Shown one piece after another: positions 1,610 to 14,993 of a stretch of DNA of 14,993 nt. A model generated the notes under the pieces. That model saw nothing but the letters and a program-made list of their open reading frames with translations, made no database searches and was not told where the DNA came from. The number at the start of each line of letters is the position of its first letter. The first letter of the stretch is position 1. Origin of the DNA: a virus (taxonomy: Duplodnaviria; Heunggongvirae; Uroviricota; Caudoviricetes); the IMG/VR virus record IMGVR_UViG_2563366958_000011; one strand, given 5' to 3'. The position numbers and the translations under genes are program-made.

Positions 1610-2824
1610 GTGAAACTCAATGCCCGTCAAATAGACACAGCCAAGCCAAAAGAGAAGGCTTACAAGCTGGCCGATGGTGGCGGTTTGTATCTCTTGGTAA
1701 AACCTAATGGAGGTAAATACTGGCGACTTAAATATCGTGTAGCTGGTAAAGAGAAGCTATTGGCACTAGGTGTTTATCCTGAGGTTACTCTAGCCGATGC
1801 TCGGGCAAAACGTGAAGATGCGAAAAGAGGTATCGCTGGTGGTATCGATCCGATGGAAGCGAAACGAGAGGAAAAGATTGCCCGGGAAACGCAGTTAAAC
1901 AACACCTTCAAAGATATTGCCCTTGAGTGGCACAGCAGCAAATTAAAAAAATGGTCTGCTGGTTATGCTTCAGACATCCTCGAAGCCTTCAACAAAGATG
2001 TGTTCCCTTACATTGGCAAAAAACCCATCGCCGAAATCAAACCACTTGAACTTCTGAATGTGCTGCGTCGCATCGAGGGGCGCGGTGCTACAGAAAAAGC
2101 CAAAAAAGTGAGGCAACGGTGCGGGGAAGTTTTCCGCTATGCAATAGTCACTGGTCGCGCAGAGTATAACCCTGCACCAGACCTTACTAGCGCGATGCAA
2201 GGCCATGAATCTAATCATTACCCTTTCCTTACAGCCAAAGAATTACCTGATTTTTTCAAGGCATTGTCCAGTTACTCAGGAAGCGCATTGGTTGTTATGG
2301 CGGCTCGTCTACTGATTATCACCGGCTTGCGGACTGGCGAACTACGTGGCGCATTATGGGATGAAATTGATTTCAACAAGGCTATCTGGGAGATACCCGC
2401 TTCACGTATGAAAATGCGGCGGCCTCATATTGTGCCATTGTCTGAGCAGGCTCTTTCGCTTATTGGGAAGATTAGAGAAATAACAGGCAATTACCCTCTT
2501 ATGTTTCCCGGGCGCAATGATCCAAGGAAAACAATGAGCGAGGCCAGCATAAACCAAGTGTTTAAGCGCATTGGCTACGCTGGACGTGTAACTGGTCATG
2601 GGTTCCGGCACACTATGAGTACGATTTTGCATGAGCAGGGCTATAACACTGCGTGGATAGAAACGCAGCTCGCTCACGTTGATAAGAACTCAATTCGTGG
2701 CACATACAACCATGCGCAATATCTGGATGGAAGGCGGGAGATGCTTCAATGGTATGCCGACTATATGGATTCTCTCGAGCATGGCGGAAATGTGGTGCAT
2801 ATGGTGTTTGAAAAACACGCATGA
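1610..2824 (+). CDS. int: P4-type tyrosine integrase (site-specific recombinase), 404 aa
   Basis: GTG start at 1610 with GGAGG at 1596-1600. N-terminus KLADGGGLYLLVKPNGGKYWRLKYR...LGVYPEVTLADAR matches the arm-binding domain pattern of P4-family integrases. C-terminal catalytic signature present: R (RTGELR), H-x-x-R (HGFRHT), Y (RGTYNHAQY). Sits directly 3' of a tRNA. Confidence 0.93.
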   Translation: MKLNARQIDTAKPKEKAYKLADGGGLYLLVKPNGGKYWRLKYRVAGKEKLLALGVYPEVTLADARAKREDAKRGIAGGIDPMEAKREEKIARETQLNNTFKDIALEWHSSKLKKWSAGYASDILEAFNKDVFPYIGKKPIAEIKPLELLNVLRRIEGRGATEKAKKVRQRCGEVFRYAIVTGRAEYNPAPDLTSAMQGHESNHYPFLTAKELPDFFKALSSYSGSALVVMAARLLIITGLRTGELRGALWDEIDFNKAIWEIPASRMKMRRPHIVPLSEQALSLIGKIREITGNYPLMFPGRNDPRKTMSEASINQVFKRIGYAGRVTGHGFRHTMSTILHEQGYNTAWIETQLAHVDKNSIRGTYNHAQYLDGRREMLQWYADYMDSLEHGGNVVHMVFEKHA

Positions 2825-2890
2825 AACAACTGGACAAGTATACAGAGGTTTACTAAAGTATAAGGGAGTAGATTGATAAAAACTCACAGA

Positions 2891-3220
2891 GGATTGCTAT
2901 TTAACAGTTAGCCATGGAGAAGGGCAATCGCTCTTTTAACAACGAAGATGGAATCTTCTACGCAGCTGAAAAGCTGGATGCTCTTTAACAGCCTTTGGTG
3001 CTTTTCTGATGCAGGAAAGAATAGGGATACATGCACCTTTACAATGCATGTAATGATTCATCCATGAGGCTGCGGAGCGCTGACAAAGCGCAATTGCTCT
3101 TTAACATTGATGTGGGCGGGATGGTTCGTCCCGCAGTGACCGATAGATTTCTATCGGGAAACATACAATGATTCAAATATGAATCTACGGCGCTGACAAA
3201 GCGCAATTGCTCTCTTGCCT
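2891..3220. repeat. intergenic repeat/palindrome array: five GCTnTTTAACA-like motifs, an imperfect ~111-bp tandem duplication and several perfect palindromes
   Basis: Motifs near 2891-2907, 2922-2943, 2977-2993, 3088-3109 and 3199-3220. Exact 24-mer gcgctgacaaagcgcaattgctct at 3077-3100 and 3188-3211. Palindromes gcggga-N7-tcccgc at 3115-3133, cgataga-ttt-ctatcg region at 3140-3157, gattca-aata-tgaatc at 3170-3185. Confidence 0.6.
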
Positions 3221-3475
3221 GCCCACCATGCCCTGAAAAAGGGCGTTCTTTAAAACTACTGGATGTCACGCCTAATAGCGTGATCCTGCCGAAATGCAGG
3301 GTAGCTCTACCCTTGTGGAGCAAACAAACCAAAACAATCTGACTATCTTTTATAAAAGACCGCAATATGTTTTTCATATTGTGGTCTTTGGCGTATTCGA
3401 CATTTGACGCAAATAAAACTCTCGCCATTCGTTGCAGGAGGGGGTTATTGCGTCATTAGTACAGGATATTAATAA

Positions 3476-3679
3476 ATGGCTAATTACAATTCATTAATTC
3501 GTCTCTCTGAAGTTCAAAGGCGAACTGGTTATAGCAAAGCATGGATTTATCGTCTTATTAGTCAGGGGAGGTTCCCTAAACAGGTAAAAATTGGAAGTCG
3601 GGCAATTGCTTTTGTTGAGTCTGAAATAGATGAATGGATTGAGAAGTGTATATTAGAATCTAGAGACGAGGTGGCCTGA
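3476..3679 (+). CDS. alpA: AlpA-family phage/island transcriptional regulator (excisionase-like HTH), 67 aa
   Basis: Sequence LIRLSEVQRRTGYSKAWIYRLISQGRFPKQVKIGSRAIAFVESEIDEWI matches the AlpA/prophage regulatory protein pattern (HTH then a conserved W/E tail). AGGA about 10 nt upstream of the ATG. Confidence 0.85.
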   Translation: MANYNSLIRLSEVQRRTGYSKAWIYRLISQGRFPKQVKIGSRAIAFVESEIDEWIEKCILESRDEVA

Positions 3680-5131: not shown

Positions 5132-5598
5132 CCGTCCAGAAGAAGATATTTTCACTGGCTGGTATGTCACCAAAATCCAGCAATATGACAGCAAAGTCTG
5201 GCATTAATACAGCAGATACAAGCAAAGTTTATCATTTTCTGGTGGTAGGAGCGGATGCCTTAACTATGTCAGAAATTACGGTCGATGGTGTTAGCGTTGA
5301 GAAGGTCAGCGGCTGCGCCAGAGAATTTCTGGTCGTAGATGGCTTTCTCTGCTCGCGTAGTGACTCCACAAAAACCTTCGTCCATACGCGCGACGTTAAC
5401 GAAATGAGCGCGATGTATTGTGCATCTGGTGCTTCCAATACTGAGTTTTCGGAGTCCATAAAAAAGAGCTTGCCGTTATGCGGCAACACGGTTTATGGTT
5501 ATAAGGCACCTCATAAAACGGGTGCCGGGATTGGCGTCCTGAAAATTCTGAAGGCGACATATGACGCGCCGGGTGATGCTGCCAACTTACTGATTTAG
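5125..5598 (+). CDS. hypothetical protein; last 8 codons and stop are supplied by the IS1 left end, so the native 3' end is interrupted
   Basis: ATG 5125 with GGAGG at 5113-5117, coupled to the upstream gene (ATGCTAA). Frame enters IS1 at 5572 and terminates at the IS1 TAG (5596-5598). Native C-terminus unknown. Confidence 0.5.
5563..5571. repeat. IS1 target-site duplication, left copy (GACGCGCCG)
   Basis: The identical 9-mer recurs immediately after the IS1 right end at 6340-6348. Confidence 0.9.
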
Positions 5599-5626
5599 TG
5601 TATGATGGTGTTTTTGAGGTGCTCCA

Positions 5627-5902
5627 GTGGCTTCTGTTTCTATCAGCTGTCCCTCCTGTTCAGCTACTGACGGGGTGGTGCGTAACGGCAAAAGCACCGC
5701 CGGACATCAGCGCTATCTCTGCTCTCACTGCCGTAAAACATGGCAACTGCAGTTCACTTACACCGCTTCTCAACCCGGTACGCACCAGAAAATCATTGAT
5801 ATGGCCATGAATGGCGTTGGATGCCGGGCAACAGCCCGCATTATGGGCGTTGGCCTCAACACGATTTTACGTCACTTAAAAAACTCAGGCCGCAGTCGGT
5901 AA
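5627..5902 (+). CDS. insA: IS1 InsA (zinc-finger transposition regulator), 91 aa
   Basis: [22 protein letters not shown]...CSHC zinc-finger N-terminus; canonical InsA. Confidence 0.95.
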
Positions 5903-6324
5903 CCTCGCGCATACAGCCGGGCAGTGACGTCATCGTCTGCGCGGAAATGGACGAACAGTGGGGCTATGTCGGGGCTAAATCGCGCCAGCGCTGGCTGTTT
6001 TACGCGTATGACAGGCTCCGGAAGACGGTTGTTGCGCACGTATTCGGTGAACGCACTATGGCGACGCTGGGGCGTCTTATGAGCCTGCTGTCACCCTTTG
6101 ACGTGGTGATATGGATGACGGATGGCTGGCCGCTGTATGAATCCCGCCTGAAGGGAAAGCTGCACGTAATCAGCAAGCGATATACGCAGCGAATTGAGCG
6201 GCATAACCTGAATCTGAGGCAGCACCTGGCACGGCTGGGACGGAAGTCGCTGTCGTTCTCAAAATCGGTGGAGCTGCATGACAAAGTCATCGGGCATTAT
6301 CTGAACATAAAACACTATCAATAA
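5821..6324 (+). CDS. insB: IS1 InsB frame (transposase made as an InsAB' fusion by -1 frameshift at the A6C site)
   Basis: ORF in the -1 frame relative to insA, overlapping its 3' end. AAAAAAC slippery motif at 5878-5884. Coordinates are from the first in-frame ATG of the ORF track. Confidence 0.9.
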
Positions 6325-6339
6325 GTTGGAGTCATTACC

Positions 6340-6408: not shown

Positions 6409-6563
6409 CAGCGCCTTTGTCAATCAATGGTGGCTCAGGCGGGGGCTTCTTCGGAAGCGCCGGTATCCTTCAGAGCCGGTTACGCCAACCCTGTCTGGGC
6501 TACCACCAGCGAAATTGGCGTTTCCGGTGGTAGCGTAACCTGCTATCTGAAGGAGGCTGCCAC
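6409..6563 (+). promoter_or_regulatory. structured 5' leader (possible regulatory RNA) upstream of the first small gene
   Basis: Hairpin gcttc-UUCG-gaagc at 6445-6458 and a 9-bp stem gctaccacc/ggtggtagc at 6499-6507 and 6526-6534 with an 18-nt loop. Ends at the AGGAGG SD (6551-6556). Confidence 0.3.
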
Positions 6564-12451: not shown

Positions 12452-12808
12452 ATGGAACTAAAATTTATTGATAACCCTGTGCGATTACAGGCCTTTCTTA
12501 ACGAGCCAGGCAATACCGAAAATATTGTTGAGCCGGGGCACACGTACTACATCAAGCCTGATGCGGTATATCTCGGCATCTACGAAGGATTAGTGCTGGC
12601 TGGCGTTCATGAAGTGCGTAACTTCTGGCATAGCGTTGTTGAATGCCATGCGGTGTACGACCCCGGATTCCGTGGTGAATATGCACTGCAAGGACATCGA
12701 TTATTCTGCAAATGGCTTCTCGAAAACTCACCATTCCTTAACAGCATTACCATGGTTCCTGACACCACGAAATACGGACGGGCAATTATCCGTTTGCTTG
12801 GCGGGTGA
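12452..12808 (+). CDS. hypothetical protein, 3' end truncated by IS1 copy 2 (stop codon lies inside the IS1 left end)
   Basis: ORF begins 17 nt after the RHH-like gene. TGA at 12806-12808 belongs to the IS1 terminus GGTGATG, so the native C-terminus is missing. Confidence 0.55.
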   Translation: MELKFIDNPVRLQAFLNEPGNTENIVEPGHTYYIKPDAVYLGIYEGLVLAGVHEVRNFWHSVVECHAVYDPGFRGEYALQGHRLFCKWLLENSPFLNSITMVPDTTKYGRAIIRLLGG

Positions 12809-12858
12809 TGCTGCCAACTTACTGATTTAGTGTATGATGGTGTTTTTGAGGTGCTCCA

Positions 12859-13134
12859 GTGGCTTCTGTTTCTATCAGCTGTCCCTCCTGTTCAGCTACT
12901 GACGGGGTGGTGCGTAACGGCAAAAGCACCGCCGGACATCAGCGCTATCTCTGCTCTCACTGCCGTAAAACATGGCAACTGCAGTTCACTTACACCGCTT
13001 CTCAACCCGGTACGCACCAGAAAATCATTGATATGGCCATGAATGGCGTTGGATGCCGGGCAACAGCCCGCATTATGGGCGTTGGCCTCAACACGATTTT
13101 ACGTCACTTAAAAAACTCAGGCCGCAGTCGGTAA
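12859..13134 (+). CDS. insA: IS1 InsA, copy 2
   Basis: Translation identical to copy 1 InsA. Confidence 0.95.
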
Positions 13135-13556
13135 CCTCGCGCATACAGCCGGGCAGTGACGTCATCGTCTGCGCGGAAATGGACGAACAGTGGGGCTATG
13201 TCGGGGCTAAATCGCGCCAGCGCTGGCTGTTTTACGCGTATGACAGGCTCCGGAAGACGGTTGTTGCGCACGTATTCGGTGAACGCACTATGGCGACGCT
13301 GGGGCGTCTTATGAGCCTGCTGTCACCCTTTGACGTGGTGATATGGATGACGGATGGCTGGCCGCTGTATGAATCCCGCCTGAAGGGAAAGCTGCACGTA
13401 ATCAGCAAGCGATATACGCAGCGAATTGAGCGGCATAACCTGAATCTGAGGCAGCACCTGGCACGGCTGGGACGGAAGTCGCTGTCGTTCTCAAAATCGG
13501 TGGAGCTGCATGACAAAGTCATCGGGCATTATCTGAACATAAAACACTATCAATAA
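13053..13556 (+). CDS. insB: IS1 InsB frame, copy 2
   Basis: Translation identical to copy 1 InsB. Confidence 0.9.
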
Positions 13557-13566
13557 GTTGGAGTCA

Positions 13567-14316
13567 TTACCCAAATGCCGCAGCCCCCTCTGGATCCGCC
13601 TTTAACATTTGCGCGTATTGATTGTAATTCTGCATTGCGGCTGTTGGTGCATATGCTGACGTTAACGCATTTGCTCGGCTAATATCCTGCCCTCTCGCCT
13701 GAAGTGCTTCTCCGGCTTGATTGCTGCGGATCGTCTCTGCCAACTTGCCACGCTCAATATCCCGACCTTCCATTCGATCTTTGATATCGAAGTACTTCTC
13801 ATGACCGAGAGAAAACAGTGCCATACTACCAGCAAGCCGCTGGAATCCCTGTGGATCATTAACATGCATTTCGGCAACAGACTCAGGAGAAATTCCCAAA
13901 CGACGCATTTCATCTTCGTTATCTGCTATGAATTTTCCAAATGCCCCAGTTCCGAGCGAAGATGCGATTTGAGCACTAGTCGCAAGATGACCAATAGAAT
14001 TTCTCTGGTCGTCATCAATAAAGCCCATCCCTTTCTGAACGCTTTCAAATTCTTCTGGATACTCAGAAATAAGACTGCGCATTTTGTTTCTGTCTCCAGA
14101 CTCAAAAGCCCCGGCATATGCTTTCTGAAACTCTGCTTTACGCTGTTGTTGACGTGCCTGCTGATTAATCTCAGCAACGCCTCTTAGCCCCTGTAGCGCC
14201 ATTAAACCTACGTTTGGCTGCTGCTGATACTGCACAGGCTGAGGAACGGAAGAACGAGGAGCATTATCATTTTGCGGTGCCATGCTAGGCAGCCCGCCAA
14301 GTTGCCATGTCGCCAT
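13567..14316 (-). CDS. hypothetical Gln/Pro-rich protein, 249 aa; stop codon supplied by the IS1 right terminus, so probably C-terminally truncated
   Basis: Minus-strand ORF whose TAA (13567-13569) lies inside the IS1 end sequence. Start overlaps the upstream gene by 1 nt (TAATG), indicating an operon. Confidence 0.6.
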   Translation of the reverse strand: MATWQLGGLPSMAPQNDNAPRSSVPQPVQYQQQPNVGLMALQGLRGVAEINQQARQQQRKAEFQKAYAGAFESGDRNKMRSLISEYPEEFESVQKGMGFIDDDQRNSIGHLATSAQIASSLGTGAFGKFIADNEDEMRRLGISPESVAEMHVNDPQGFQRLAGSMALFSLGHEKYFDIKDRMEGRDIERGKLAETIRSNQAGEALQARGQDISRANALTSAYAPTAAMQNYNQYAQMLKADPEGAAAFG

Positions 14317-14993
14317 TAGAATCCAAGCCCCCCAACAAGACCAATAAGCCCACCACCAATAGCCCCGGCGACATTACCTATACCCGGAACAACGGAACCA
14401 AGTTGCGCACCCGCTAAAGCGCCTGATGCCGCCCCACCAATACCACGCGCAAGACTGGATGGCTGCTGCGCCTGACCTGCACGAATAGCGCCAAGCCCCT
14501 GCAAGAGTTGTCCGGTATTATTGGCGTAGTTTTGCCCTGCTGTTGCCTGCCCTGATGCCGCATTCATCCCGACATTTAGCAGGTTTCCATAATTTTGCAT
14601 TTGCCCACTGAGCCAATTGTTATAAAGCATGGGCGCAATGGAAGATAACTGGTTACTGGTAGCTGTTGAGCCAAGCCCCCCGGTAGCTTCTGCTGAGACA
14701 AGGTTCTGATAACGGGCCTGATCTGCCTGTGTTTTATATAAACCAGAACCAAAGAAATCATTCGCGGCTTTATTCTGCCCTTCCAGAGTCATCAGTCCTT
14801 GTAGTTGTTGTAAAGCAGGCAATCCGACTTCTGCATACGGCTTGAGATTATTCATCACCGTATTCCACTGCTCGCGCTGCAAATCAATTGCCTGCTGCTG
14901 GGCCTTCGCCTGAGCTTTAGAGGCACCACCATCACCGCCTTTTTCGTATACGGCACGATTGAGATGTTTATAAGCTATATGGGTAATTAACAT
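14316..14993 (-). CDS. hypothetical Gln/Asn/Gly-rich protein with a C-terminal glycine-zipper hydrophobic segment; N-terminus may lie beyond the window edge
   Basis: Minus-strand ORF reaching the window end. C-terminus GIGGAASGALAGAQLGSVVPGIGNVAGAIGGGLIGLVGGLGF looks like a membrane-inserting glycine zipper. Possibly a phage ejection or structural protein, or a bacteriocin-like protein; family not recognised. Confidence 0.55.
   Translation of the reverse strand: MLITHIAYKHLNRAVYEKGGDGGASKAQAKAQQQAIDLQREQWNTVMNNLKPYAEVGLPALQQLQGLMTLEGQNKAANDFFGSGLYKTQADQARYQNLVSAEATGGLGSTATSNQLSSIAPMLYNNWLSGQMQNYGNLLNVGMNAASGQATAGQNYANNTGQLLQGLGAIRAGQAQQPSSLARGIGGAASGALAGAQLGSVVPGIGNVAGAIGGGLIGLVGGLGF

Follow-up and report, generated by a model that had tools for sequence, protein, structure and literature searches.

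Nut sites are textbook elements of lambda-like phages. Across lambda, P22, 21, HK97/H-19B/933W, Stx2-1717/VT2, and HK620/CUS-3 they follow one grammar, with a boxA, a spacer that is either short or made of a hairpin plus UACG, and a class-specific boxB, and they lie on the transcribed strand, 3' of a promoter-like site and 5' of a terminator. Each early operon of such a phage carries one nut site of one specificity, used in cis with the phage's own N protein. Here, we describe an array that almost certainly consists of nut-type boxA and boxB elements, located between the integrase gene (int) and alpA of a satellite island. It is found in a stretch of 14,993 nucleotides (nt) from IMG/VR virus record IMGVR_UViG_2563366958_000011 (Caudoviricetes), hereafter the window. 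The array shares the grammar, strand, and placement of the phage sites; two of its boxB 15-mers are identical to phage boxBs, and 48 nt are nearly identical to a phage nutL. It differs from them in having seven modules and at least four specificities, in lacking an N gene, and in standing before a satellite activator gene. In several modules, unlike in phage nut sites, boxA is either a long way 5' of boxB or directly 3' of it.

The leaders of ribosomal RNA (rrn) operons offer a second point of comparison. Their boxA consensus, UGCUCUUUA, is the binding site of NusB/NusE (PMC6614797). This boxA, a local order of hairpin, boxA, and GU-rich box, and a long untranslated leader are common to rrn operons and the array. 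The rrn leaders differ in that their boxB is dispensable and not sequence-specific, no phage protein takes part, and their action is constitutive.

Among satellites, the closest described relative is EcCIMP1 of E. coli MP1 (Pick et al. 2025, PMC11773190), a phage-inducible chromosomal island (PICI) that sits at tRNA-Thr between proA and yagU with the same gene set, and for which the need of a helper in excision, replication, and transfer was demonstrated with phage Kapi1 (PMC11773190). The two islands are alike in their tRNA-Thr/proA site, their identical AlpA, and their set of antirepressor, ash, primase, and DUF2824 genes, and the 427-nt spacer of EcCIMP1 is a shorter version of the window array. 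The window island differs by an inversion, two copies of IS1, and extra modules (the C spacer, D, and E). The helper-encoded inducer of Gram-negative PICIs was stated to be unknown and "now under study" in 2018 (PMC6092414) and was left open again in the 2025 EcCIMP1 paper (PMC11773190). Helper-embedded PICIs (PMC10111431) are likewise coupled to the transcription program of the helper and not to a repressor/anti-repressor pair. Those islands, however, are embedded in a late gene of the helper and expressed in cis as part of its late transcript, whereas the coupling proposed for the array is in trans, via an early antiterminator. A further parallel is HK022 Nun, a protein that binds lambda nut RNA to terminate transcription and so excludes lambda. 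There, too, one element exploits the boxB/nut recognition of another phage, but HK022 supplies the protein, while the satellite described here would supply RNA sites and borrow the phage protein.

The array between int and alpA

The int-alpA spacer of the window is 100% identical to that of E. coli SCU-172. Its features and flanking genes are as follows:

1610-2824, plus strand, tyrosine integrase gene (int), with its stop codon at 2824
651 nt between int and alpA, the int-alpA spacer
2831-2859, plus strand, predicted promoter-like site TGGACA, 17 nt, TAAAGT, just past the int stop and 5' of the first boxA
2895-2925, plus strand, Unit A: boxA TGCTATTTAACA (2895-2906), 4 nt, boxB-like GCCAT-GGAGA-AGGGC (2911-2925)
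2929-2976, plus strand, Unit B: boxA CGCTCTTTTAACAA, hairpin GAAGAT-GGA-ATCTTC (2944-2958), UACG, boxB CAGCT-GAAA-AGCTG (2963-2976)
2979-3091, plus strand, Unit C: consensus boxA TGCTCTTTAACA (2979-2990), 86-nt structured spacer, boxB GCGCT-GACAA-AGCGC (3077-3091)
3095-3204, plus strand, Unit D: consensus boxA (3095-3106), GU-rich boxC-like TGTGGGCGGG (3111-3120), hairpins at 3114-3134 and 3140-3157, then a nutL segment
3160-3207, plus strand, nutL segment of Unit D: hairpin GATTCA-AATA-TGAATC, UACG, boxB (3190-3204)
3208-3244, plus strand, Unit E: degenerate boxA TGCTCTCTTGCC (3208-3219), 10 nt, boxB GCCCT-GAAAA-AGGGC (3230-3244)
3245-3284, plus strand, Unit F: boxA-like GTTCTTTAAAAC (3245-3256), 8 nt, hairpin GTCACGC-CUAAUA-GCGTGAT (3265-3284)
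3285-3300, plus strand, Unit G: boxB CCTGC-CGAAAT-GCAGG, of the HK620/CUS-3/IME10/611R6 class
3304-3321, plus strand, conserved hairpin GCTCTAC-CCTT-GTGGAGC, followed by an A/C-rich, nearly G-free tract to 3345
3355-3389, plus strand, predicted terminator-like hairpin separating the array from alpA (15-bp stem, UUUUU loop)
3402-3422, plus strand, 21-mer ATTTGACGCAAATAAAACTCT, containing TTGACG, between the terminator-like hairpin and alpA
3476-3679, plus strand, alpA (67 aa; Pfam Phage_AlpA, E = 7e-20), first gene of a co-oriented satellite operon

All boxA elements and all hairpin loops read in sense on the alpA strand. An earlier sequence-only reading of the window had singled out 2891-3220 for its GCTnTTTAACA-like motifs, and this cluster is borne out. 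GCTNTTTAACA occurs in three exact plus-strand copies (starts at 2896, 2980, and 3096), with 0.97 matches at up to one mismatch expected across the whole window, and three further boxA variants lie on the same strand (CGCTCTTTTAACAA at 2929-2942, TGCTCTCTTGCC at 3208-3219, and GTTCTTTAAAAC at 3245-3256). A relaxed boxA pattern matches 2825-3475 five times on the plus strand and never on the minus strand, compared with one plus and two minus matches in the remaining 14.3 kb, and none of 20,000 shuffles attained five matches. The rrn consensus is present in three of the copies, as in TGCTCTTTAACA, and the same boxA is found in phage nut sites, as CGCTCTTTAAC in P22 and as (T/G)GCTCTTTAACA in phage 21 and Kapi1.

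The reading had also noted an exact 24-mer repeat and three near-perfect palindromes. The 24-mer, GCGCTGACAAAGCGCAATTGCTCT, is indeed duplicated exactly, at 3077-3100 and 3190-3213, with the copies 113 nt apart from start to start and not 111. Palindromes are present as well, in greater number than three: the array region holds at least ten short hairpins, and RNA 2866-3420 folds at -187.6 kcal/mol compared with -140.9 +/- 6.2 kcal/mol for shuffled sequences (z = -7.5). The locus itself was rightly placed, with limits that proved too narrow, as the array extends from about 2831 to about 3422.

Several of the hairpins 3' of the boxA elements carry loops that match phage boxBs exactly or by class, on stems that covary. 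At the core of the 24-mer lies GCGCTGACAAAGCGC, which is identical to the boxB of P22 nutL and of HK97/933W nutL; this 15-mer is present twice in the array, as the boxB of Unit C and of Unit D. Its GACAA pentaloop is the N-binding loop of P22 (PMC12550061). In Unit E, GCCCTGAAAAAGGGC at 3230-3244 is the exact 15-mer of the lambda nutR boxB (NC_001416 38265-38281). The remaining hairpins were assigned by comparing them with phage regions 5' of N and 3' of cro; the phages were those that tblastn identified from the Kapi1 and HK97 N proteins. The layout of Unit B is that of both nut sites (nutL and nutR) of Stx2-1717 and PhiR63_2, and HK97 nutR shares it, but with GACAA as the loop. When three phage sites and five island versions of Unit B are aligned, 97.5% of the cells are paired, compared with 27-52% when the partners are slid, and six of the ten pairs show change on both sides. 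The Unit G loop is shared with HK620, CUS-3, IME10, and 611R6, which have CCCGC-CGAAAT-GCGGG after boxA both 5' of N and 3' of cro; the HK620 record labels these sites nutL and nutR.

Unit F resembles the boxB of phage 21 and Kapi1 without being identical to it. Phage 21-type boxBs have a 6-7-bp stem and a CUAACC loop (PMC12550061), as has Kapi1 by its sequence; the Unit F hairpin has a 7-bp stem and a hexaloop beginning with CUAA. Scans for the exact Unit F hairpin found none at a phage nut position, only coding-region or terminator contexts. For the Unit A boxB, with its GGAGA loop on a lambda-like stem, no cognate phage appeared among the matches listed in scans of viral contigs, which were island copies or chance matches. 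The Unit A stem is broken in the window by a C>A change (GCCAT in place of GCCCT), while five relatives have a perfect GCCCT-GGAGA-AGGGC, and the module may be decaying in this strain. Judged by these loops, the array covers at least four, and probably five, N-specificity classes: lambda; P22/HK97/933W; Stx2-1717; HK620/CUS-3; and a phage 21-like class.

A direct phage origin is visible in Unit D. Segment 3160-3207 has 94-96% identity with the nutL regions of 933W, H-19B, HK97, and HK106, is annotated as nutL or boxB in several records, and is clearly captured phage nutL DNA. BLAST of the spacer against phage genomes gave 88 records, with every match at 3160-3207 and 94-96% identity, and BLAST of 3240-3400 against phages gave nothing above chance. 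Rfam gave no relevant match, whether searched at gathering thresholds or, for 2780-3520, at E values up to 5.

A coding origin of the region can be rejected. The only long open reading frame (ORF) here, 3039-3428 on the minus strand, had been thought spurious in the sequence-only reading, which named a degenerate coding gene in related islands as the finding that would count against a binding-site array. The ORF matches nothing in Pfam or PHROG, and near-identical relatives have indels of 224 and 260 nt that destroy it; it is therefore probably a spurious call. RefSeq/PGAP annotates the same frame in SCU-172 as a 129-aa hypothetical protein, WP_248699324.1.

Conservation and turnover in E. coli

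Of 5,426 complete E. coli genomes, 292 (about 5%) have the 3' part of the array, 279 of them at 95% identity or more; carriers include NC101, 83972, and enterotoxigenic E. coli H10407. Spacers measure 391, 427, 543, or 651 nt, and the differences are whole modules. Unit D is missing from the short arrays and from a second island lineage at tRNA-Gly, whereas Unit E is found in the tRNA-Gly lineage and the long arrays but not in the 391-427-nt arrays. The exact 24-mer copies flank Unit D, and the tRNA-Gly lineage has a single 24-mer and no Unit D; the flanking repeat suggests that D is either a phage nutL inserted by recombination at boxB or a segment removable by recombination between the repeats. 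In E. coli SW07164 (locus L008, 1245-2500), an IS3 inside the array parts units A-C from the remaining units and alpA, a natural disruption.

Through this turnover, the hairpins are kept by covariation. Across eight aligned E. coli variants, the 55 pairs of eight helices are 97.6% paired, compared with 36-47% when slid, and five pairs have changed on both sides, a number matched by none of 500 shuffles. In the tRNA-Gly lineage, Unit G shows a compensatory change from U-A to C-G, and the Unit F loop reads CUAAUC; the Unit F stem stays paired through one-sided changes (G-U to G-C and G-C to G-U).

The modules are also closer between the island at tRNA-Thr (the thrW lineage) and the tRNA-Gly lineage than are alpA, int, or the leader. 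The Int and AlpA proteins of the tRNA-Gly lineage are 66% and 72% identical to those of the window. At the DNA level, comparison with a tRNA-Gly locus (L007) gives 94% identity for 2929-3076 (units B-C) and 100% for 3190-3244 (boxB/Unit E), compared with 74% for alpA. This difference suggests either lateral exchange of nut modules between satellites or strong selection on them.

The predicted promoter-like site and the terminator-like hairpin keep their positions across arrays, with no conserved ORF between them. The -35 element is invariant across the eight variants, while the -10 element is TAAAGT in thrW islands and TAACGT in tRNA-Gly ones. The hairpin at 3355-3389 folds more stably in plus-strand RNA (-20.8 kcal/mol) than in minus-strand RNA (-16.3 kcal/mol, with an A-C mismatch), has one compensatory U-A to C-G pair among relatives, and is called an intrinsic terminator in its tRNA-Gly homolog (L007), where 11 bp are followed by TTTTTGTCGTG. 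The tract after the 3304-3321 hairpin (A14 C7 G1 T7 over 3322-3350, longer by CCAACC in the tRNA-Gly lineage) is a possible Rho-loading, rut-like region. The 21-mer ATTTGACGCAAATAAAACTCT is identical in the two lineages within a flanking spacer of about 78% identity. It has no good -10 element, which would suit an activator-dependent promoter, and we regard it as a candidate AlpA-dependent promoter or operator; published reports describe AlpA autoactivation in PICIs (PMC6092414; PMC11773190).

A proposed helper-N switch for alpA

We propose, as an account that we lean towards with moderate confidence, that helper N loads onto RNA polymerase at the array and drives read-through into alpA and the satellite operon. 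The int-alpA spacer would be a transcribed, untranslated leader with seven tandem nut modules, each a boxA followed by a boxB hairpin. The promoter at about 2831-2859 would transcribe the array, and with no helper present, polymerase would halt before alpA at 3355-3389, and perhaps sooner, by way of Rho at the C/A-rich tract. Infection by a lambda-like helper, or its induction, would supply N, the first of its early proteins, which would bind the cognate boxB on the nascent satellite RNA; NusB/NusE on boxA, together with NusA and NusG, would then complete a termination-resistant polymerase that reads through alpA and on along the co-oriented operon. AlpA would in turn boost its own expression and start excision and replication. 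The expected binders are the helper's N antiterminator and host NusB/NusE on nascent RNA. Promoter activity, termination without N, N loading, and read-through are all inferred.

The mixture of modules suggests a further property. We hold it only a little likelier to be right than wrong that the array, modular and recombining, with units from different phages of the lambda type, serves as a multi-input OR gate, in which N from any of at least five phage families would give read-through into alpA and the whole operon. A single satellite could then answer many helpers, with modules taken up from phages and exchanged among islands.

The island has no N gene: none of its 18 ORFs matches the N family phrog_271, while the N proteins of Kapi1, P22, and HK97 do. 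The cis N gene that normally accompanies nut sites is therefore absent from the element, and any N would have to be supplied in trans by a helper. Published reporter data fit such a supply. An EcCIMP1 alpA-lux fusion (-449 to +50) responded to mitomycin C in Kapi1 lysogens alone, and the response persisted, to a lower maximum, in a delta-alpA strain (PMC11773190). The fragment takes in the entire 427-nt MP1 spacer, and Kapi1, whose nut sites are of the phage 21 type, has an N-family protein with 80% identity to phage 21 N. Two steps, from helper N to the first AlpA and from AlpA to its own promoter, would account for both components of that response. Only 2 of 21 EcCIMP1 strains carry a Kapi1-like prophage, and the authors proposed diverse helpers (PMC11773190), a proposal that an array of several specificities fits.

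Several observations weigh against this account. The sole proven helper, Kapi1, uses CUAACC loops, of which the array has no exact copy; Unit F (CUAAUA/CUAAUC) is similar, not identical. The boxBs of units C and D have their closest boxA 4 nt downstream, the reverse of the lambda order, and the next one upstream is 83-86 nt distant. Unit A is mutated in the window. The promoter and terminator of this locus are predictions, and the U-tract of 3355-3389 is weak here (UUUGGCGUAUU); the terminator scan made no call. Arrays are also rare elsewhere: 78 of 80 AlpA loci sampled from other species have none, the exceptions being Pantoea septica and Providencia alcalifaciens, and the classical PICI EcCICFT073, which is induced by lambda and phi80, has no boxA/boxB array in its int-alpA spacer.

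Alternative explanations

The array might instead serve as a decoy. Once transcribed, and more so once the island replicates, it would soak up helper N and Nus factors and so delay or weaken helper expression, resulting in interference or protection from superinfection. Satellites commonly interfere with their helpers, and seven N-binding-type hairpins of several specificities in one RNA would make a plausible sponge. Superinfection immunity against Kapi1 is enhanced by EcCIMP1, in which no known defense system was found (PMC11773190). A decoy, however, would have no need to be co-oriented directly 5' of the master activator with a terminator between; EcCIMP1 alters neither Kapi1 titers after induction nor the infection of non-lysogens, and the published reporter of the region gives a positive, helper-dependent output (PMC11773190). 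As the primary function of the array, we consider a decoy unlikely. It would be compatible with the alpA switch, and it might relate to the contribution of EcCIMP1 to superinfection immunity.

An N-independent leader of the rrn type, in which boxA recruits NusB/E, NusA/G, SuhB, and S4 for constant protection from Rho with no input from a helper, is improbable. It would explain the three boxA copies with the rrn consensus UGCUCUUUA, and in 3077-3120 the order of hairpin, boxA, and GU-rich box is the boxB-boxA-boxC order of rrn leaders. Complexes of the rrn type, however, counter Rho and not intrinsic terminators. The boxC-like run occurs only once (3111-3120), protein-coding genes lie downstream, and the hairpins reproduce, exactly or at the level of class, the boxBs of distinct phage N families and are kept by compensatory change, whereas the rrn boxB is neither sequence-conserved nor required (PMC6614797). 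Expression of alpA in EcCIMP1 is, moreover, helper-dependent and not constitutive (PMC11773190).

Slightly less probable still is that the array is a patchwork of relics, left by illegitimate or homologous exchange with lambda-like prophages and without present function. Unit D is captured phage DNA with 94-96% identity to phage nutL, Unit A is mutated here, and one strain has an IS3 within its array, all of which such a history would produce. It would not lead one to expect that nut elements alone are retained and neighboring phage genes never, that one orientation is kept throughout with covarying stems, that the array 3' part recurs in the 292 E. coli genomes counted above (279 at 95% identity or more), or that the same grammar appears in unrelated sequence in Pantoea and Providencia.

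Sites acting on duplex DNA, as AlpA operators, integrase arm sites, or terminase (cos/pac) repeats, can be given almost no weight: repeats between int and a regulator gene stand in a typical operator place, and the conserved 21-mer at 3402-3422 may be an AlpA site, but the motifs have a single orientation and are identical to phage RNA elements, compensatory and G-U changes preserve pairing that is specific to RNA (the G-U pairs form only in plus-strand RNA) and not the DNA sequence, the att core lies about 1.4 kb away at the tRNA-Thr end, on the other side of int, and AlpA had no control over int in EcCICFT073 (PMC6092414). The sequence-only reading had offered these DNA-level options beside a structured RNA locus; its noncoding array of binding sites stands, with the RNA option the closest, while operators and packaging repeats fall to the orientation, the phage boxB identity, and the RNA-type pairing.

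Arrays in other species and limits of generality

BLAST of the array against the 80 AlpA loci found only E. coli relatives. By grammar, and with sequence that cannot be aligned, arrays were found before alpA in islands of Pantoea septica and Providencia alcalifaciens. The Pantoea array has a UACG plus GAAA hairpin and a CGAAAT loop on an unrelated stem (GATCAT-CGAAAT-ATGATC). A promoter-like site lies 5' of each array (TGGAAA, 17 nt, TATATT in Pantoea; TTGACT, 16 nt, TAATAT in Providencia). A search for tandem consensus boxA pairs in viral contigs was uninformative, since the matches listed were mostly coding or giant-virus tandem repeats.

With EcCICFT073 and 78 of the 80 loci lacking an array, the helper-N switch would explain at best one satellite family, and a universal route of PICI induction is rejected. 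The EcCICFT073 spacer (locus L090, 11161-11525) has other repeats, GAACAAC/GACACAAC runs, and contains CACTCTTAAAAA, which is similar to the lambda nutL boxA CGCTCTTAAAAA and has no boxB after it.

A literature search for work linking PICIs, satellites, or alpA with nut, boxB, or antitermination found no relevant paper, with most subscription journals outside its reach, and the EcCIMP1 paper makes no mention of nut, boxA, or antitermination (PMC11773190). We therefore provisionally regard a tandem nut array of mixed specificity, placed on a satellite before its activator, as undescribed. It provides a concrete molecular hypothesis for how helpers switch on alpA, the master activator of Gram-negative PICIs. 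If it is correct, the helper-encoded inducer long sought for this class of Gram-negative PICIs would be N, and the satellite would sense its helper in a new way, by borrowing a processive antiterminator through captured RNA sites and not through a repressor/anti-repressor pair. Nut sites would then be exchangeable modules traveling between phages and satellites, and the helper range of a satellite could be read from the composition of its array. There is also a consequence for annotation: the protein that PGAP places across the array is spurious, and nut sites have no Rfam family.

The island and its other genes

The island begins beside the following host locus:

Window start, tRNA at 1369-1444, proA and tRNA-Thr(CGU)

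From alpA through the primase gene, all genes are on one strand; alpA is followed by antA/B antirepressor, DUF4222, ash, small ORFs, and TOPRIM/DUF927 primase genes. The AlpA protein, WP_000035054.1, has the same accession in EcCIMP1 of E. coli MP1. With int at tRNA-Thr/proA, co-oriented alpA, antirepressor, ash, primase, and DUF2824 genes, and no capsid or lysis genes, the gene content is that of a variant of the EcCIMP1 family of PICI satellites.

Two identical IS1 copies lie at 5572-6339 and 12804-13574. The first interrupts the ash ORF, and the second borders segment 13572-14993, which is inverted relative to SCU-172. With two insertions, one of them splitting ash, this copy of the island may be defective. 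The second IS1 also cuts the DUF2824 gene (12452-12808, plus strand), whose 118 aa correspond to positions 1-115 of a 151-position profile. Beyond it, 13567-14993 (minus strand) holds ORFs equivalent to an SCU-172 hypothetical protein and a frameshifted phage DNA-ejection gene. The DUF2824 and DNA-ejection-type genes of EcCIMP1 resemble those of its helper Kapi1, and a packaging role has been proposed for them (PMC11773190).

A full-length C4 antisense RNA was found at 6423-6510 on the plus strand (Rfam RF01695, 79.9 bits, E = 1e-14). It falls within a region that PGAP annotates as an "ash family protein", 3' of the antA/B antirepressor gene, and looks like part of a P1/P7-style C4/ant immunity module within a PICI.

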